DNA of 64,000 bases. Source: a virus. Location: the IMG/VR virus record IMGVR_UViG_3300032288_005579. One strand, written 5' to 3'. A model generated the notes under the pieces. It was not told where the DNA came from, searched no databases, and was given only the letters and a program-made list of their open reading frames with translations. This document shows positions 6,113-40,178 of this stretch, one piece after another. Positions within the stretch are counted from its first letter, which is position 1. Each line of letters opens with the position of its first letter. A program made the position numbers and the translations under genes.

Positions 6113-6152
6113 AAATTTCACATACATATATTTATAATAAACAAAACCATTT

Positions 6153-6917
6153 ATGTCAGACAAAAAATACGCAGTTCCAACAGAAATTATTGACCTACCT
6201 TCAAAGGGTGTGTTGTATTCGCCTTTAAATCCGTTGTGTTCGGGTTCGGTCGAAATGAAATACATGACCGCCAAAGAGGAAGACATCCTAACGAACGTTA
6301 ACCTACTTAGACAGGGGTTAGCCATAGAAACGGTGTTGAAATCGCTCATAGTCACAAAGATAAACTACGACGAATTGATCATTGGCGACAGAAACGCGCT
6401 GTTAGTCGCGGCACGCATCCTCGCTTACGGTAAGGACTACGCTTTCGAATACGTAAATCCCAATACTAACGAAAAAGAGTTGGTTACGGTGGATCTGTCA
6501 GAACTAAAATACAAAGAGATCGACTTTGACAAACTCAACGACAAGAACGAGTTCACATTCAAGTTGCCAAAAACGGACAATGTGGTTACCTATAAGATTT
6601 TGACCGTGGCCGACGATAAGGCGATAGAACGTGAAGCAAAGAGCATGAAGAAAGCCCTCAACACAGACGTGGGTATGATGAGTTTAAGGCTCAAGAAGCA
6701 GATAACTTCCGTAAACGGTGACAGCTCAGAGAAAGCCATTCGTGAATTCGTTGACGGTGGGCACCTTCTAGCTATGGATTCCAGAGCCTTAAGAACTGAC
6801 ATGACAAGAAACACACCGGACATCGATATGACATCGCTGGTGACTCTCAGGGACGGTTCTGACCTAAACGTCGATATTCCTATTACTGCAGAATTCTTCT
6901 TCCCAGGTACTGAATAA
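6153..6917 (+). CDS. Baseplate hub assembly protein / tail assembly chaperone (T4 gp26-like)
   Basis: PTEIIDLPSKG, MKYMTAKEEDILT, GDRNALLVAARILAYG, DSRALR; lies between tube and tape measure. Confidence 0.8.
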   Translation: MSDKKYAVPTEIIDLPSKGVLYSPLNPLCSGSVEMKYMTAKEEDILTNVNLLRQGLAIETVLKSLIVTKINYDELIIGDRNALLVAARILAYGKDYAFEYVNPNTNEKELVTVDLSELKYKEIDFDKLNDKNEFTFKLPKTDNVVTYKILTVADDKAIEREAKSMKKALNTDVGMMSLRLKKQITSVNGDSSEKAIREFVDGGHLLAMDSRALRTDMTRNTPDIDMTSLVTLRDGSDLNVDIPITAEFFFPGTE

Positions 6918-6926
6918 ACAGCACCC

Positions 6927-7305: not shown

Positions 7306-10300
7306 GTGGCAGTAGACAACGAAAAACCCGAACAACCGAAATCAGCGGCGGCACCTTCCCAAAAGGAGGATGCTCAAGATTTTTTAAAAGTTTTCAAGGA
7401 ACGATTAGGAATCGAACGCTCAATTCGTGACGAGGCCAAGTACAGTATACAAAACCTAGAAAAACAACTCCAAACAATACAGAAACAAAATGCCAAGTTA
7501 GAAAGTCAGAATCGTGATACGATAAACATAAAGACTATAAATTCCGAGATTCTAAGGAATAAACAGGATTTATACGTTACTACTGCAAAGATAGCTGATA
7601 AAGAGAAAGAGGTACTTAAAGGCGATCCTAAAAAGATTGAGGCATTTAAACAGCAAATGCAGGAACATGAAAAGCTAAAAAAAGCGGAAAAAAAGGCAGA
7701 AGACGAACTTAGAGAATCCGCAATAAAAGTAGAATCAGAAAAAAAGAAGTTAGGTGCAGCAGGCGCTGCTCAAGCAGAAAAAACGTTCTCTAAACAAAAA
7801 CAATTAACACAGGATCTAGCTTTTGCTGAGAGCGAAGCCAAAAGAAAGATAGAACTCGCAGATCAAAATCGAACGAAGGATATAGAGGCCACTGAAAAAG
7901 AGATGGCCTCGAAAAAAACAGATCTGCAAAAGAAAGTGCACCAAGATGGAGTAAAATTAGCGTCACTAGATAGATTACTAGATAATAAGAACCTGTCAGA
8001 GCAAAAAAGAGAAAAATTAGAAAGACAGAAATACGAGATAGAGAGTAACAAAAAACAAAGCGAAAACGAACTATCCCTAATAGACGAAACAAAGAAAAAG
8101 CGTCTAGACGCGTTTGAAGCAATACGAGCAAGAGAAGTAGAAGACGCACAATCCACCCTACAAACAACACAGAAGAACATAGCCGAAGAACAAAAGTTAC
8201 TTCAAGAAAATTTAACTGACGGAGAAAAAGCATACCAACAATCGTTAGAAACGATGGATGCGAAGCAGCAACAGCTTGATATCGCGAAGGACCAGTCACA
8301 GTTGAATTTAGATTCCATGGATGAAGAGGCTTTGACTCTTGCTGCGCTACAAAAACAAAAAGACGTAGAAGAAGCTCAGTTAGCAATTAACGAGAAGAGA
8401 AAACAACAAGAAGTTGAAGTCAGTGATACACTGGGTCTTACGGGAACATTAGCTCAAAAATTCACTGAAAAACTTGGAGTCGGAGAAGGCGTTTACAACG
8501 CAATGACCGAAAAGGCCCGTCAACTTGTAGAAGAGCAAGAAAAGAGCGGTAAAAAAATGGGACTCCTATCCAGCAGGTGGGAGGTTCTTAAAGCTGGTAT
8601 CAAGGCCGCGGGTCAAAATCTTAGAGACATGTGGAACGATCCCGTAGCAAGAGCTGCTATATTGGCAGGGATATTGAAGACCGCGTGGAACGGACTGCGC
8701 GCAGGATTCGATAAAGTCGGAGCTGCGGCTGCCGGCGCAGGAAACATGTTGAAGAAGATGTCTTCGGACTCAGCTTCAGTGTTCTCAGACCTAGCGAAAC
8801 CCGCTTTGGACATAGTAAGTAAGATACCGATGGTGGGTGGATTGATATCGGGAGTTTTAAGCGGTATCATAGCGGTAGTCGACATGGTCACGGGCATGAA
8901 CGATGCCCTGATAAAGACGGGAAGGACTCTCGGAATGACCTACGAACAGACTAAAGCGTTAAACCATCAATTCCAAAACTTTTCGGCTTCCTCTGGGGAC
9001 ATATTCAATAACTCCAAAAAACTTTTAGAGAGCTACGGAGAAATTTCTAAAGAGTTGGGAGTTATAACAACTCTGTCTAACCAAGATCTCACTACAAACA
9101 TAAAACTAAGAGATCTAGCGGGATTGGACGTCCAGACCCGTACGAAGTTGATGACCATCGCAAAGACGTCTGGAAAGGATGTACAAACGCTGACTTCCAA
9201 CATACTTGCTCAAACAACGGCTCTTCAAAAACAGACGGGAATACAACTGAACAATCAAAAAGTTCTAGCTGAAGTGACAAAACTGTCAGGCGTTCTAGGG
9301 TTACAGTTCTCAAAGTTCCCAGAGAAGATAACCGCTGCATACGTACAGATGAAGGCTTTGGGAATGGAACTCACTTCTCTTGATCAAAAAGCCGACGGAT
9401 TCTTAAATTTCCAAGACAGTATACAAAAAGAATTCGAAGCACAGTTGTTGACAGGAAAGGATCTCAATCTCATGAAGGTTCGTGAGTTGATGTTGAACAA
9501 CAAGATAGCGGATGCAGGACTTTTAATTGCCAAACAAGTGGGAAGCTCGAAAGACTTCCTAAAGATGAATAGGTTGGAAGCGCAGTCGTACGCCGCAGCC
9601 ATGGAAATGACTAGAGACGAAGTCGCTAACATGCTTAGAGATCAAGAGGCCATGGCGGCTTTTGGAGCTAATAGTACTAAGGAAGTGCAAAAACAGGTCG
9701 AATTGTTAAGACAACAGGGTAAAGAACACGAAGCTATTGCCAAATTAGGAAGTAGAGAGGCTTACGATGCTATGACTAAGGCCACTTTACAAGAAAAGAT
9801 CGCTGCATTCATAGAGAAGATAAAACAGTCTCTTGCCGATTTCGTAGAGAGAACGGGATTGATCGAAAAAATCGAAAAGATGTTCAAGTGGTTGGAAGAT
9901 CCTTCGAAGATAAGAGGTGTGATATTCGCTGTTAGAGACGCGTTCGCTGGCATAGTAGATATCATGATGTCCGTAGTAGGCGGAATAATGACTGCTCTTA
10001 GTAAGTGGCCATTTAACGCAGTTAGTTCTGACGAACTTTTTAAGTTCAGAGATATGCAAAAATCCATATCTAAAAACATTCGTAGCGTTGGAACTGAAGC
10101 TTTACAAGACGCAGGACAAGAACAAAAAGGAAAAGACCCAAATAAAAAAGAATTTGCTTTAGGCGGATACACTGGAGACGGACCTAAAAATAAGATAGCT
10201 GGTTTGGTTCACGCTCAAGAGTACGTTGTAAACGCTGATCAGTTAGAAAAATTGGGAGGAGTGGTGAACTTCCAAAAAACTCTTAGTGAATTGTTAATGT

Positions 10301-28416: not shown

Positions 28417-29439
28417 ATGAAATTAGAAAAATACGAAAAACTAAAACAGCGGTTAGAGGTTCTCAAACTAGAGAAAAACTTTTTCCCGCTTAACACAACC
28501 CTGTATTGGTTTTCCTTTCTTGGAAACATCTTCTTGATTTACTTTGGTTACTTCTTCATAAGAACGATTACAGACACACTGCCTGACTTATTCCCATACC
28601 AGGATGAATTTTTTATGGTGTTTATTGCTCTATTCCTTTCTGGATACGAGCTCACTAAAAGATTTGTAATAGATCAGACCGCGAATTCTTTAGTGGGTCC
28701 TAAAAAATCTTTGAGTTTTGGAGTTGTATTCGGCGTATTAGCCTCATTGTTTCTAATAGGAGGATCTTTTTACATGTCCATAAAGGGCGCTCATAGACTT
28801 GTGGACAACAAGGATGTCATAACAGCGCAAATAGATTCAGTATCCACTAAAAAAATAGAAGACATCTCGGCTTATTACGATAAAGAAATAGCTTTCTATA
28901 GATCTCAACCTGCGCGCACACGCACTGATCGAATGTATAGAGATTCTATAGTCTCAAGTCTTCAGGTTCAAAAGGACACAAAAATAACCGAAGAAGAAAA
29001 TAAACAGGAGTTTAAAGCTGGTGATTCTTTGGCAGAGAACGAAGAGAACGATTTTGCTTTCATGATCATAACGGTGTTTTTAGAGGCGATAGTCATACTC
29101 GGTGTTGGATTTAATTCCTTCTATACGGTATCGACATACGAAGAGACGGGTAAGCTACTACAAACACCAAAGTACCGTCAATACATGAACAACCTCCAAC
29201 TCTTGAAGATGTATTACGCCAATGGTAAAAAAGAACCTGGGGAATTGACGCTATCATTCACAAAACTTGCATCTCTCGTTAAGAATCAAAAGCTGGGAAT
29301 ATCAAATTCAGAGGTAAAAGATTTTATATCGATGTGCACAGAACTTGGAATATGCAAAGAAATGCAGAACAAGCGTAAGCAACTTGTGATGACCTACGAA
29401 GACGCGAAAAAAGCTCTTCAAAAGGACGACATATTTTAG
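28417..29439 (+). CDS. Hypothetical multi-pass membrane protein
   Basis: About four hydrophobic segments separated by a charged loop. Confidence 0.7.
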   Translation: MKLEKYEKLKQRLEVLKLEKNFFPLNTTLYWFSFLGNIFLIYFGYFFIRTITDTLPDLFPYQDEFFMVFIALFLSGYELTKRFVIDQTANSLVGPKKSLSFGVVFGVLASLFLIGGSFYMSIKGAHRLVDNKDVITAQIDSVSTKKIEDISAYYDKEIAFYRSQPARTRTDRMYRDSIVSSLQVQKDTKITEEENKQEFKAGDSLAENEENDFAFMIITVFLEAIVILGVGFNSFYTVSTYEETGKLLQTPKYRQYMNNLQLLKMYYANGKKEPGELTLSFTKLASLVKNQKLGISNSEVKDFISMCTELGICKEMQNKRKQLVMTYEDAKKALQKDDIF

Positions 29440-35490: not shown

Positions 35491-35552
35491 ATTGTTACAC
35501 GTAAAATGAATTTTTTTATGTTCTTAAAATATTGTTATATTACCAAAAAAGC

Positions 35553-36599
35553 ATGCAAAAATTCATAATCAACAAAGACTTATTGGCTGCGCTTGACGAT
35601 TACGATCGCAAGAGCAACCTCATGGAGAAACACTCCAACGTGGGGCTTCCCTACGAAGGAGACCTCAAAGCAGACGTCAACGACGATCTGATCTACCACG
35701 TACCAATCTACGATACATGTCAGCGGAGATTCGCGGCCTTCTGTTCTTTCACTGAGGCCATATGGCACAAGCACGAGGATCCGCGCAAGATGGGAAAACA
35801 CTTCGCAGATCACCATATACCCGAAGAGTTCGATTGGTTCATGCTGTGGTATTTGTTTCGACTGTGCGGCAGCGGCATCAACTATGTGCCTCGCTACTCT
35901 AAAGAAACCATTAAAGACATACTCGGTACCCACGGTTATGGCAACTTCTGGATCATCGACTCTATATTGAAGGGTCGTTACACTTGGCAAGAGTGGAGAG
36001 AAGATCTGAGAAACCGCATCAGACCCTTCACAGACAATAAAGGATATCTGCTACCTCAATTCACGTTCGAAGGAGAGCGCAGCGGAAACCATCTGCGTAG
36101 GTTCATACTCGAACACTCAGAGAGATTGGTGAGACACATCTTCGATAAAGTAACTAAAGAGAGGATGGACATCTATCAAGTAACCGATTACGGCAACGAG
36201 TACCTCAAAGAACAGGGATTCAAGAAGCAGAACTTCGTGCTCACAGCTTTTGCGGCAGACATAGCAGAATACATGCCACAGTACGTGAACCCTAAGGGAT
36301 ACGTGTACTGCGGAACCAACGCTGTGCGGTGCATCAACGCAATATTCCCAAAGGTGTCTAAGAAAGTAAAAGACTTCGAGTACCTCAACGAGGTGCTACA
36401 GTTTCTATCAGACAGATACAACTTGAACCCTATCGACTGCGAAGACGCGAGAGCGTGCGACGTTGTACGATACTTCCAAGAATACCAGTCTCCAGATCAT
36501 GTCATTAAGAATGATGGACGAAAGATGCTCAACAACTCTGTATTGAAGCAGATTTGGGGAGAAGAGAAGTATTACGACTTCGCAAACAAAATAAAGTAA
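35553..36599 (+). CDS. aGPT-Pplase-like (alpha-glutamyl/putrescinyl-thymine pyrophosphorylase; amino acid:DNA transferase superfamily) base-modification enzyme
   Basis: HVPIYDTCQRR, WYLFRL, FVLTAFAADIAEY..VYCGTNAVRCI and IDCEDARACDVVRY parallel the family pattern (F.NV.R..DR; FRLFN; F.AYQ..TDL...GPGA..GL; DIEN.LCE..KY). ATG at 35553. Confidence 0.6.
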   Translation: MQKFIINKDLLAALDDYDRKSNLMEKHSNVGLPYEGDLKADVNDDLIYHVPIYDTCQRRFAAFCSFTEAIWHKHEDPRKMGKHFADHHIPEEFDWFMLWYLFRLCGSGINYVPRYSKETIKDILGTHGYGNFWIIDSILKGRYTWQEWREDLRNRIRPFTDNKGYLLPQFTFEGERSGNHLRRFILEHSERLVRHIFDKVTKERMDIYQVTDYGNEYLKEQGFKKQNFVLTAFAADIAEYMPQYVNPKGYVYCGTNAVRCINAIFPKVSKKVKDFEYLNEVLQFLSDRYNLNPIDCEDARACDVVRYFQEYQSPDHVIKNDGRKMLNNSVLKQIWGEEKYYDFANKIK

Positions 36600-36600
36600 C

Positions 36601-37482
36601 ATGTTCGAAAACAAGGCAACGGACCAATCCAACTTGGATTTGGAGGGAGGCAGGGATCTTAACTACTACCTCGACATGACCAAAGACTACAAGTCGGATG
36701 CGGAGTTCAAGATAAAACAGCTTGAAGGTTTCAACGTCATCGACGATGGAGAATTCCAGTACGGAACCAAAGCCAGAATGGGCGACTTCATGATCAGTCG
36801 AGTGAAGGAGGACACTTTAGTATACGTGGCACCTAGAACAGGCTACGCTCCTTACTCTCTCACGTACCTAGCAAAGAAGTACAACAAGAAACTGGTGCTC
36901 TTCATGCCCGCTTCCAAAGAGGCATCCGAACACCAGCTCAGAGTGATAGAGGAAGGCGCCACACCCATATTCCTTAGGACAGCAGCAATGCCGACTCTCA
37001 ACGCTTGGGCCAAACAGTTCGCTCAAAAGACTGGCGCAAAGTACTTGCCATTCGGACTCAAGCACGAGGAGGTCGTGGCAGGTGGAGTGCGCATATTCCA
37101 CGACGCACTCAAAGACCTGAACATACCCGAAATGTGGACAGTATTCTCAACCGGTGTGCTGTCCAGAACCCTTCAGATCGCTCTTCCCAATACGACGTTC
37201 AATGCTGTAGCTGTCGCAAGGAACGTGCAACCAGGCGAACTAGGCAGAGCCAGATTCTATACCTACGATAAGGCATTCACAAGAGAATCAAAGGTCCATG
37301 TACCGTTCGATTGCATCAAGACCTACGACGCAAAGGGTTGGGAGTATATGAAGAAGTACGGTAAGGAGGGCGACTGGTTCTGGAACGTGGCAAGGAACAT
37401 GCCGAAACCGACCATAAAACCAAGCGATGTTGACTCAGAACGGGCTTGGGGAGATAAGTCAGATATGGACAAGTACCTATAA
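36601..37482 (+). CDS. PLP-dependent enzyme, fold type II (TrpB / cysteine synthase-like)
   Basis: GTKAR (Schiff-base Lys), VYVAPRTGYAPYSL, LVLFMP, STGVLSR phosphate loop, YDAKGW. Confidence 0.8.
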   Translation: MFENKATDQSNLDLEGGRDLNYYLDMTKDYKSDAEFKIKQLEGFNVIDDGEFQYGTKARMGDFMISRVKEDTLVYVAPRTGYAPYSLTYLAKKYNKKLVLFMPASKEASEHQLRVIEEGATPIFLRTAAMPTLNAWAKQFAQKTGAKYLPFGLKHEEVVAGGVRIFHDALKDLNIPEMWTVFSTGVLSRTLQIALPNTTFNAVAVARNVQPGELGRARFYTYDKAFTRESKVHVPFDCIKTYDAKGWEYMKKYGKEGDWFWNVARNMPKPTIKPSDVDSERAWGDKSDMDKYL

Positions 37483-37524
37483 AATTTATTAGATTAGCTG
37501 AACAAATTAGTGTATATTAAAACT

Positions 37525-37809
37525 ATGAAAAACAAAAACATACTTGAAGAAGCAAATGAAATTGTCAACAGACGATCTCAAGAAAAGGAACGAATGTACG
37601 GTCCATTTTCTGAGGGAATGGAACGCGCTGCTATGATCATGCGTGGAATGACAGGCAAGAATTTTACAGCCGAAGACGTATACGTTGCATTGGTTGCATT
37701 AAAACTTTCTAGGCATTCTTACAATTATCGCAGAGATAATCTACTTGATGCCACTGCATACTTAGGAGCTTTAGATAATTACATCTCAGATAAACAAAGC
37801 AAAAAATAA
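37525..37809 (+). CDS. DUF6378-like small all-alpha protein (possible nucleotide pyrophosphohydrolase)
   Basis: ILEEANEIV...YG...DV...LKLSR...RDNLLDATAY pattern. Confidence 0.7.
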   Translation: MKNKNILEEANEIVNRRSQEKERMYGPFSEGMERAAMIMRGMTGKNFTAEDVYVALVALKLSRHSYNYRRDNLLDATAYLGALDNYISDKQSKK

Positions 37810-38519: not shown

Positions 38520-38677
38520 AGAGTTTTTTACTTGGCACAATAGGTGTTATAGTAGCTGCTATAATACCATTTGGAATACTAAAATTAGCAGCGACCATGA
38601 TGGATAGAAAAGAACGACTACAAAAACAAAAACAATATGAAGATCAAGAAAATAAGACAGGTAAAGACACCAACTAG
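38516..38677 (+). CDS. Small membrane-anchored hypothetical protein
   Basis: 53 aa with hydrophobic N-terminus and ATGA overlap; overlaps the dUTPase start by 41 nt. Confidence 0.4.
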   Translation: MKSFLLGTIGVIVAAIIPFGILKLAATMMDRKERLQKQKQYEDQENKTGKDTN

Positions 38678-39074
38678 AGGCACACCTGATAGCGCAGGAA
38701 TCGATCTGTACATTCCTAAGGACTACACTAATAAGCCAATAACCATCGAACCGGGAGAGTCACTATTCATTCCCAGCGGCATAAAAGCACATGTTCCAAA
38801 AGGACACGCATGGGTCGCTATGAATAAGAGCGGAGTAGCTGTGAAACAGGGTCTATCGGTAGGAGCGCAAGTTGTGGATGCCGATTACGATGGAGAAATA
38901 CATATTCACGTGTTCAATTTCTCCGATATACCCCAAGAGATTCAGCCCGAACAAAAGATAATTCAAATGTTACTTTTGCCCGTAAACTTCGAAAACATTG
39001 AAGAGGTGGAAGAACTTCCTGATAGGAAGACAGAGCGGGGTAGCGGAGGATTCGGAAGCACAGGATTACAATAG
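38637..39074 (+). CDS. dut: dUTPase (trimeric)
   Basis: SAGIDL, NKSG, VVDADYDGEI, RGSGGFGSTG. Confidence 0.93.
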   Translation: MKIKKIRQVKTPTRGTPDSAGIDLYIPKDYTNKPITIEPGESLFIPSGIKAHVPKGHAWVAMNKSGVAVKQGLSVGAQVVDADYDGEIHIHVFNFSDIPQEIQPEQKIIQMLLLPVNFENIEEVEELPDRKTERGSGGFGSTGLQ

Positions 39075-39076
39075 TC

Positions 39077-39556
39077 ATGGGAAGAGAAGAGACCATACAC
39101 ATCTTAGAGGAAAGAACTAGGCAAAAATTGTCTAAGCTTGATGCTGTATACGTTAACATAGCAAAAGAAGTGGGATCTCTTTCTAATTGTGAAAGAAGTA
39201 AAGTCGGCGCCATACTTGTAAAAGACGGTAACATAATATCCATGGGGTATAATGGAACTCCCAAGGGTTTTGATAATTGCTGTGAAGACGTCGTAGTAGT
39301 CGATGGAGAGAGTAAACTTGTTACTAAAAAGGAAGTGCTGCATGCGGAAATGAATGCAGTTTTAAAAGCAGCGAGAACCGGAAATTCAGTCGAAGGATCT
39401 ACGCTGTACATAACTCTTGCGCCTTGCATAGATTGCTCGAAATATCTATTGCAATCGGGAATACGAAGAGTTGTATATTTGGAAGAGTATAGGGACAATA
39501 GCGGAGTTACGCTGTTGGGTAATTACATAAAAGTAGAAAAGTATGATGTTAAGTAA
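39077..39556 (+). CDS. dCMP deaminase
   Basis: KVGAILVKD, GYNGTP, LHAEMNA, APCIDC zinc motifs. Confidence 0.92.
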   Translation: MGREETIHILEERTRQKLSKLDAVYVNIAKEVGSLSNCERSKVGAILVKDGNIISMGYNGTPKGFDNCCEDVVVVDGESKLVTKKEVLHAEMNAVLKAARTGNSVEGSTLYITLAPCIDCSKYLLQSGIRRVVYLEEYRDNSGVTLLGNYIKVEKYDVK

Positions 39557-40178
39557 TGCAACAGAGGCGTTTGAATATTTGTACCACGATTTGAATACTC
39601 GAGGGGAGGATTTTGCTGGAACGAAGGCAAGATTCAATGCTTCATTCACCGTGTCAAACGTAGAAGATAACATCATTGAAACTCCACAACGAGCTTTCAA
39701 AAAGAGTTACGCTGAATACGAATGGAACTGGTATCTTACGGGGAATAGAGACGCGAAAGAAATAGCTGAGCGTGCCAAAATATGGCAAAACATGATGGTT
39801 CCTGGTACTACAGAGGTTAATTCCAACTACGGGTATTTTTGGAAGTACAATGATCAGTTAGATAGAGTCATAAACGAGTTAAAGAACAATCCAAATACCC
39901 GCCGCGCCATAGTGGTTCATTATGATATCAATGAACTCGATAGGTACAAATACGATACACCGTGTAATGATGTATTGAACTTCTACGTTAAGGACGGAAA
40001 GTTAGAACTCACAGTCTTCGCTAGAAGCATAGATCTGTGGTTCGGATTCTGCAACGATTTCTATATATTTTCCAGACTCATGAAGATGGTATCTAAAGAA
40101 ACAGGTTATGAGTTGGGAAACATGCATTGGTTCATTACGAATTTACATATATACGAAAGACACTACAACAAACTATAA
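39543..40178 (+). CDS. Thymidylate synthase homologue with a dCMP-type specificity residue (dCMP hydroxymethylase/methylase-like)
   Basis: Catalytic PCN, NSNYG, RSIDLWFGFCND (Asp at the E. coli TS N177 position, as in T4 gp42 FGFRND), NLHIY. Confidence 0.8.
   Translation: MMLSNATEAFEYLYHDLNTRGEDFAGTKARFNASFTVSNVEDNIIETPQRAFKKSYAEYEWNWYLTGNRDAKEIAERAKIWQNMMVPGTTEVNSNYGYFWKYNDQLDRVINELKNNPNTRRAIVVHYDINELDRYKYDTPCNDVLNFYVKDGKLELTVFARSIDLWFGFCNDFYIFSRLMKMVSKETGYELGNMHWFITNLHIYERHYNKL

Follow-up and report, generated by a model that had tools for sequence, protein, structure and literature searches.

Phages use modified bases to evade restriction enzymes and CRISPR nucleases, and such bases have also been a source of epigenetic-sequencing tools. 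Amino-acid-derived hypermodifications are, to our knowledge, known so far on thymine only, where they start from hydroxymethyluracil and involve a dedicated DNA kinase; a literature search retrieved no description of an amino-acid-type hypermodification of cytosine. The thymidine hypermodification clusters of phages M6, ViI and PaMx11 encode a deoxyuridylate (dUMP) hydroxymethylase, a 5-hydroxymethyluracil (5-hmU) DNA kinase, an amino-acid:DNA transferase (AADT, formerly aGPT-Pplase) and a pyridoxal-phosphate (PLP) decarboxylase (PMC8989533). In M6, gp51 is the AADT and gp52 the PLP decarboxylase, which acts on amino-acid-modified thymine in DNA (PMC8989533). In the thymidylate synthase (TS) family, residue 177 (E. 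coli numbering) is Asn in enzymes that act on uracil and Asp in those that act on cytosine (PMC13326640; PMC8670742), and Asp177 is enriched on cytosine-modified contigs (PMC8670742). A bulky Leu143 keeps water out and leads to a methyl product, Asp or Glu143 lead to a hydroxymethyl product, and replacement of Asp169 by Asn marks the flavin-dependent 5-hydroxy-dCMP synthases (PMC13326640). Here we analyse a TS-fold gene at positions 39543-40178 of a 64,000-nucleotide (nt) stretch, referred to as the window, which corresponds to bases 4629-68628 of the 183,411-bp virus record IMGVR_UViG_3300032288_005579 from IMG/VR (rated complete by CheckV). We propose, with a probability of about 70%, that the 211-aa product is a folate-dependent deoxycytidylate (dCMP) 5-hydroxymethylase of the T4 gp42 type, and that its product feeds a base-modification module rather than thymidylate (dTMP) synthesis.

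The active site was compared with enzymes of known product in a MAFFT alignment of E. coli ThyA and RB69 td (dTMP), T4 gp42 (5-hydroxymethyl-dCMP), the SPO1 gp29, M6 and ViI enzymes (5-hydroxymethyl-dUMP), RB69 gp48 (5-hydroxy-dCMP), and the Xp12 and PaMx74 enzymes (5-methyl-dCMP). An earlier note on this DNA had placed an Asp codon at the position of E. coli Asn177. Direct reading of the sequence confirms this: the codon at 40056-40058 is GAT and encodes Asp172, which stands in a gap-free column with ThyA Asn177 and T4 gp42 Asp179 and is the last residue of the peptide RSIDLWFGFCND (residues 161-172). The other key codons specify Asp138 (39954-39956), the catalytic Cys141 (39963-39965), Asn142 (39966-39968) and Asp164 (40032-40034), which are equivalent to E. 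coli positions 143, 146, 147 and 169. At positions 143/147/169/177 the enzyme thus has Asp, Asn, Asp and Asp. The corresponding residues are Asp, Thr, Asp and Asp in T4 gp42; Asp, Asn, Asp and Asn in the dUMP hydroxymethylases; Glu, Thr, Asn and Asp in RB69 gp48; Asn, Pro, Asp and Asp in Xp12 and PaMx74; and Leu, His, Asp and Asn in ThyA. Cys141, Asp172 and Glu60 align without gaps with T4 gp42 (Cys148 and Asp179 for the first two) and are invariant in the family, as is the combination of an acidic residue at 143 with the folate-site Asp169 and Trp80 (Trp81 in the protein). Equivalents of Glu58, Tyr94, Arg126/127, Arg166, His207 and Tyr209 are also present and do not vary across the family. 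Because of the residues at the four positions, together with the accompanying invariant residues, the signature fits the dCMP hydroxymethylase pattern and no other.

The protein matches Pfam family PF00303 (E 4.5e-31) and the PHROG thymidylate synthase family (7e-44) too well for chance, and its sequence matches in the Protein Data Bank (PDB) include ThyA (~1e-19) and T4 dCMP hydroxymethylase (5e-18). Its AlphaFold (AF2) model has the TS fold, with a predicted local distance difference test (pLDDT) score of 84; in the PDB, Foldseek matched the model to TS, MilA, gp42 and a flavin enzyme at E values of about 1e-13 to 1e-14 each, which does not discriminate among them. As a conventional thymidylate synthase, or as a dUMP hydroxymethylase that tolerates Asp, the enzyme would agree with the database names and with the neighbouring genes, as dUTPase, dCMP deaminase and TS are the usual trio for dUMP supply. 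We nevertheless consider this explanation highly improbable. Where ThyA has Asn177, a bulky hydrophobic Leu143 and His147, the enzyme has Asp172, Asp138 and Asn142, and the Asn177 that the reference dUMP hydroxymethylases combine with their acidic residue 143 is likewise replaced by Asp. The best NCBIfam ThyA model yields 96 bits against a cut-off of 327, the score lies below every ThyA equivalog cut-off, and the Pfam match stops at profile position 217 of 266, where the protein also ends. In a FastTree phylogeny, the enzyme falls in a 21-member clade (support 97) nested in a 60-member, entirely Asp177 clade that contains T4 gp42 (support 94), apart from the Asn177 hydroxymethylases of SPO1, M6 and ViI, which form a separate clade, and from ThyA, the outgroup. 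Moreover, in some related contigs (L128 and L131) the Asp177 gene is followed, a few kb further on, by the gene of a canonical Asn177 ThyA; by analogy with td and gene 42 in T4, the two enzymes would not be redundant in these relatives.

At least 884 database proteins match the enzyme at E ≤ 1e-10, and 193 IMG/VR contigs carry the family, most of those listed at 66-83% identity. Asp138, Cys141, Asp164 and Asp172 are kept in 120/120 closest relatives (the best 120 of the at least 884 matches, 66-83% identity), many of which bear the JGI name "thymidylate synthase". Searched exhaustively, 1.84 billion cluster representatives yielded only 18 matches at E ≤ 1e-30. Among the nearest 50%-cluster representatives of at least 170 aa, 133 of 140 have Asp at 143, 169 and 177. 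Because of the signature in the relatives and the placement with gp42 in the tree, the label "thymidylate synthase" is probably wrong, as the earlier note had suspected of a thyA annotation. The specificity for dCMP that it had suggested is very probable, given Asp177, a score far under the ThyA cut-offs and the grouping with gp42. The canonical Asn177 ThyA proteins of L128 (~15703), L131 (~15344) and Flavobacterium phage immuto (L098), encoded in open reading frames (ORFs) of 311-423 aa, have a large insertion that separates the catalytic Cys from the RSxD motif.

We infer the following reaction for the proposed dCMP 5-hydroxymethylase. Cys141 would attack C6 of dCMP, with Asp172 reading the N3/N4 face of the cytosine, and the one-carbon unit would be provided by methylene-tetrahydrofolate, a cofactor suggested solely by the equivalents of Asp169 and Trp80. 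Asp138, which replaces the bulky Leu143 of ThyA, would admit water, so that the exocyclic methylene intermediate would be converted to 5-hydroxymethyl-dCMP.

Three products had been offered previously, 5-hydroxymethyl-, 5-methyl- and 5-hydroxy-dCMP, and of these the first fits best (Asp143, Asp169 and Trp80), while the other two find less agreement. The enzyme could be a 5-methyl-dCMP synthase like that of Xp12, with the deaminase turning part of the 5-methylcytosine pool into thymidine nucleotides and so replacing a thymidylate synthase. It shares Asp177 with Xp12 and PaMx74, its gene adjoins a deaminase gene as in Xp12-type phages, and it is the sole TS-family gene of the 183-kb genome, in which neither a second TS-family gene nor ThyX was found. 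However, its residue 143 is the Asp of all reference hydroxymethylases and not the Asn of Xp12 and PaMx74, residue 147 is Asn and not Pro, and the motif is FCND and not LPYD, although the rule for methyl synthases (Asn143, Pro147) derives from two reference sequences only. Linkage and fusion to group-transfer-type and PLP enzymes, described below, would also make little sense with an inert methyl group. A methyl product is therefore improbable in our view.

The hydroxy product would require a flavin-dependent 5-hydroxy-dCMP synthase of the RB69 gp48/DLP3 gp80 type, presumably feeding glycosylation by glycosyltransferases (GTs) encoded downstream. The protein is short and lacks the ThyA C-terminus, like RB69 gp48, its model aligns well with the flavin enzyme 9iqc (template modelling (TM) score 0.82), and two GT-B glycosyltransferases and a 20-kb sugar cluster follow. 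But the diagnostic Asn169, present in RB69 gp48, is absent, as Asp164 is kept in the enzyme and all its relatives, and Trp80 is also retained (PMC13326640). The sugar genes argue little for this explanation, to which we assign hardly any probability: immuto, the nearest cultured relative of the phage, has the same GT and sugar genes with a canonical ThyA only and no Asp177 module. Since immuto shares these genes without the Asp177 TS, they are not tied to it and are no evidence for glycosylated hydroxymethylcytosine, which we rejected as the default product. The sugar and glycosylation genes occupy about 20-22 kb (41896-64000 and beyond), and the first part of this region is syntenic with immuto. 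It encodes two GT-B, GT2, GT11 and GT2+GT10 transferases, a GDP-mannose dehydratase, several short-chain dehydrogenase/reductase (SDR) epimerases, a DegT aminotransferase, two FkbM methyltransferases, a thiamine-diphosphate (ThDP) enzyme, and an acetaldehyde dehydrogenase with an HMGL-like aldolase.

Several observations weigh against a folate-dependent hydroxymethylase that serves DNA modification. The protein ends seven residues past the HxY motif, without the C-terminal segment of ~50 residues that closes over the folate in ThyA (profile positions 218-266). Since the flavin enzymes of the RB69 type are similarly short, the cofactor is not certain. A search in which all ORFs of the genome were compared by BLAST with T4, ViI and M6 and scanned for Walker-A motifs revealed no deoxynucleoside-monophosphate kinase of the gp1 type, no dCTPase of the gp56 type and no P-loop kinase of the 5-hmU-DNA-kinase type. 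The sole P-loop candidate for a kinase is a RecA/KaiC-like ATPase, which we rejected. Because the reference branches are long and FastTree was the sole method, the tree is supportive, not decisive. Finally, the nearest isolate homologues, from Bacteroides phages (45% identity), are called dCMP hydroxymethylases by annotation only.

The strongest contextual support, which the earlier note did not use, comes from the genes for a transferase-like protein and a PLP enzyme upstream of the TS gene and from natural fusions of the TS with the transferase-like protein. We sampled 72 IMG/VR loci that encode a relative of the transferase-like protein (49-86% identity), small unrelated phage backbones included. 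In these loci, the Asp-Asp-Asp TS travels together with DUF6378, an SGNH-like protein (family c0), the transferase-like protein and the PLP enzyme, usually accompanied by a MazG pyrophosphatase. Newly described here is that the TS gene is part of a mobile module. Fusions of TS and transferase-like protein were found in ten 90%-identity clusters (ENA, Logan and JGI; 578-607 aa) and in two IMG/VR contigs. The TS part of the fusions is 64-70% identical along the whole TS, with the signature intact; the transferase-like part is recognized by hidden Markov model (HMM) searches at E 1e-9 to 1e-11 and by hhalign with a probability of 97.1% over 275 columns. These fusions are strong evidence that the TS and the transferase-like protein act in one pathway.

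The transferase-like protein of the window (35532-36599, about 348-355 aa) is predicted to be an all-alpha, AADT-like protein with a helix-hairpin-helix (HhH) glycosylase fold. Its AF2 model (pLDDT 92.8) matches an AADT-domain protein in BFVD (Foldseek, E 4e-13, TM 0.72), and also aGPT-Pplase proteins and the helical domains of 5-hmdU DNA kinases. In VIA comparisons with the PDB, PaMx11 gp46 (8z2m), a 5-PmdU glycinyltransferase and solved AADT structure, scored Z 8.5, the queuine-salvage protein DUF2419 Z 9.2 and HhH glycosylases Z 5-7.5, a range that is not decisive for helical proteins. Neither the protein nor 33 relatives matched any Pfam family, the AADT/HMUDK models included, PF18724 found nothing in the whole genome even at E 10, and HMM and hhalign comparisons with the ORFs of M6 and ViI gave no profile match to M6 gp51 or gp55. 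The assignment as AADT-like is thus suggested solely by modelled fold, synteny and the fusions.

The gene for the PLP enzyme (36601-37482, 293 aa; phrog_7093, 9.5e-30) begins 1 nt past the end of the AADT-like gene, the same spacing as between M6 gp51 and gp52. The enzyme has fold type II (Trp-synthase-beta-like) and is a homologue of M6 gp52 (hhalign probability 95.6%, E 1e-8, 186 columns). The sole isolate homologues (28-30% identity), gp1 of Erythrobacter phage vB_EliS_R6L (L102) and a protein of Microcystis phage Mae-JY30 (L103, 5046-5756), are annotated "DNA modification methylase" and lie within or beside ParB/sulfiredoxin and 3'-phosphoadenosine-5'-phosphosulfate (PAPS)-reductase-like genes. 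This suggests that the PLP-fold family serves further DNA modification systems and is mis-annotated in these two phages.

The small helical DUF6378 protein (37510-37809; PF19905, 3e-11) accompanies the TS module in all phage backbones examined. We rejected it as a dCTPase of the gp56/MazG type, with an hhalign probability of 0.2% against T4 gp56 and an empty PDB profile search. The SGNH-like c0 family has no Pfam or PDB sequence match. Within the TS module of other phages, c0 is flanked by DUF6378 and the transferase-like gene. The genome analysed here has a c0 homologue outside the window and away from the module (111150-112253, in the region 110384-112253; L199:5385-7254), directly after an HhH-GPD protein, which may represent another case of c0 being paired with a base-flipping enzyme. 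This HhH-GPD protein has 254 aa (PF00730, 3e-10), and the c0 motifs are GDSH ... GNID.

The TS family is a constant companion of the AADT-like protein, and in some cases the two are fused; as the module also comprises the gp52-type PLP enzyme, DUF6378 and the SGNH-like protein, hydroxymethylcytosine is probably built up further. We tentatively suggest, at somewhat less than even odds, that thymidine hypermodification has a counterpart for cytosine, so far undescribed, and that the Asp177 hydroxymethylase catalyses its first step. In such a pathway, 5-hydroxymethylcytosine, in DNA or as a nucleotide, would gain an amino-acid-derived group that the AADT-like protein attaches and the gp52-like enzyme trims; activation of the 5-hmU-DNA-kinase type would be missing, with the SGNH-like and DUF6378 proteins as possible stand-ins. 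If so, the fusion of TS and transferase would reflect either channelling of the substrate or a reaction carried out on nucleotides.

Directly upstream of the TS gene lie the genes for a trimeric dUTPase (38637-39074, 145 aa; PF00692, 5e-25; TIGR00576 above cut-off) and a zinc deaminase of the dCMP deaminase family (39077-39556, 159 aa; PF00383, 6e-25; motifs HAE ... PCxxC). The deaminase overlaps the TS gene by 14 nt, in agreement with the earlier reading (TAA stop at 39554-39556, TS ATG at 39543); with the alternative second ATG at 39546, as in the 210-aa database entry P0001, the overlap would be 11 nt. In the lineage of the window's phage, the deaminase is always immediately upstream of the TS, with overlaps of 8-17 nt in related contigs, and the gene order is fixed: GroEL, transferase-like or SGNH-like protein, PLP enzyme, DUF6378, dUTPase, dCMP deaminase and TS.

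This arrangement bears on the cytosine-first route that had been proposed, in which the coupled deaminase processes the TS product. Such a route is not new, as it has been published for 5-methylcytosine phages and metavirome enzymes (bioRxiv 10.1101/2024.12.05.627091). Of the dCMP-deaminase genes on cytosine-modified metavirome contigs, 70% have a TS, mostly of the Asp177 type, at most 3 kb away; some of the deaminases convert 5mdCTP to dTTP and 5hmdCTP to 5hmdUTP, seven gave 5hmdU in vivo, and the thymine of Xp12 is derived from 5-methylcytosine nucleotides (bioRxiv 10.1101/2024.12.05.627091). In the present phage, 5-hydroxymethyl-dCMP, or its triphosphate, would be deaminated to a 5-hydroxymethyl-dU nucleotide, and hydroxymethyluracil in DNA would then be modified as in M6 and ViI, whose thymidine-hypermodification enzymes the AADT-like and gp52-like proteins resemble. 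The conserved pairing of deaminase and TS in the lineage is in line with this proposal. However, two complete genomes (38 kb, and 31.9 kb with terminal repeats) bear the module and one Asp177 TS without any PF00383 deaminase, and therefore the deaminase is not essential to the module. In small unrelated backbones (L164-L179 and L190-L196), a MazG pyrophosphatase (PF03819, 7e-7; for example L164:4032-4361) adjoins the Asp177 TS and occupies the place where the window's phage has dUTPase and deaminase, in agreement with the published association of MazG with TS on cytosine-modified contigs. MazG on the one hand, and dUTPase with deaminase on the other, may be alternative ways to shape the dCTP/dCMP pool. 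In addition, dUTPase and deaminase already provide dUMP, so that an Asn177 enzyme using it would be the simpler solution, but Asp177 does not vary, and the deaminase of the window is nearer to T4 cd (38.7% identity) than to the Xp12 and PaMx74 deaminases (30%). Deamination of the hydroxymethylated product is thus the less likely route, with a small but real probability. With the enzyme as a dCMP 5-hydroxymethylase for cytosine modification, dUTPase and deaminase would most simply provide dUMP to the host thymidylate synthase and balance the C- and T-type pools, like T4 cd.

The genome is that of a large, uncultured myovirus from water, with every gene on the + strand and with genes for tail sheath, tape-measure protein, DnaB helicase, class I ribonucleotide reductase, family A polymerase, Hsp20, GroES and GroEL. 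Its PolA is 54% identical to that of immuto, with which it has the backbone gene order in common (PolA-GroES-GroEL ... PD-(D/E)XK-GT-GT-sugar), and a megablast of 20 kb of the window against a phage collection gave no match. Between ribonucleotide reductase and PolA lies a 340-aa ORF (28417-29439) with 47-81% identity in relatives and no Pfam or NCBIfam match.

The TS family is abundant, and here a cytosine-type hydroxymethylase is coupled to a transferase and a PLP enzyme, sometimes in one polypeptide, without a kinase. The module suggests that phage DNA contains a modified cytosine not described so far. A correct prediction would mean a class of cytosine modification and a hydroxymethyl activation that are both new, and a systematic mis-annotation as "thymidylate synthase" in metagenome databases would be corrected. 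Taken alone, the enzyme is one more representative of a class already known; what is new is its obligatory partnership, and occasional fusion, with AADT-like and gp52-like PLP enzymes, with no kinase found.

The nearest cultured-phage homologue is WAX07047.1 of Bacteroides phage BF503P2, annotated as deoxycytidylate 5-hydroxymethyltransferase (45.5% identity over 97%). It is also a short form, has the Asp-Asp-Asp signature and belongs to the same 21-member clade. BF503P2 is, however, a different type of phage (53 kb; L001), with annotated neighbours that are mostly hypothetical proteins and with a second, divergent Asp177 TS homologue. The two BF503P2 genes (6115-6921 and 8995-9675) are both annotated as dCMP hydroxymethylase; one encodes the short form nearest to the window's enzyme, the other a very divergent 268-aa protein with Leu replacing Gly173.

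The cytosine-modified metavirome contigs and Xp12 resemble the window in having an Asp177 TS less than 3 kb from a PF00383 deaminase, MazG/PRA-PH as an alternative neighbour and the automatic label thymidylate synthase (PMC8670742; bioRxiv 10.1101/2024.12.05.627091). The tested pairs gave 5-methyl-dCMP, whereas the TS of the window has the residue 143 of hydroxymethylases, next to a deaminase nearer to T4 cd. T4 gp42 (PDB 1B5E, 6A9A) shares with the enzyme the TS fold, the Cys, Asp at 177, 143 and 169, the Glu58 and Trp80 equivalents, the motif RSxDxxFGFxND and the tree clade, and in both cases the genome also encodes a cd-like deaminase. Identity is 30%, however, and the enzyme has 211 aa against the 246 aa of gp42, without the C-terminal extension; the gp1 kinase, gp56 dCTPase and T4-type glucosyltransferases were not found in the window's genome, and the AADT-like protein and PLP enzyme to which the TS is linked or fused are absent from T4.

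The thymidine hypermodification clusters of M6, ViI and PaMx11 have the same arrangement: the gene of a TS-family hydroxymethylase lies near that of an AADT-fold protein, and a gp52-type PLP enzyme is encoded immediately after the latter. In contrast to these clusters, the hydroxymethylase here is of the cytosine type (Asp177) and not of the Asn177 type, a P-loop DNA kinase was not found, and the AADT-like protein has no Pfam AADT/HMUDK sequence match. The module described here further differs in its additional DUF6378 and SGNH-like proteins and in the fusions of TS and AADT-like protein.

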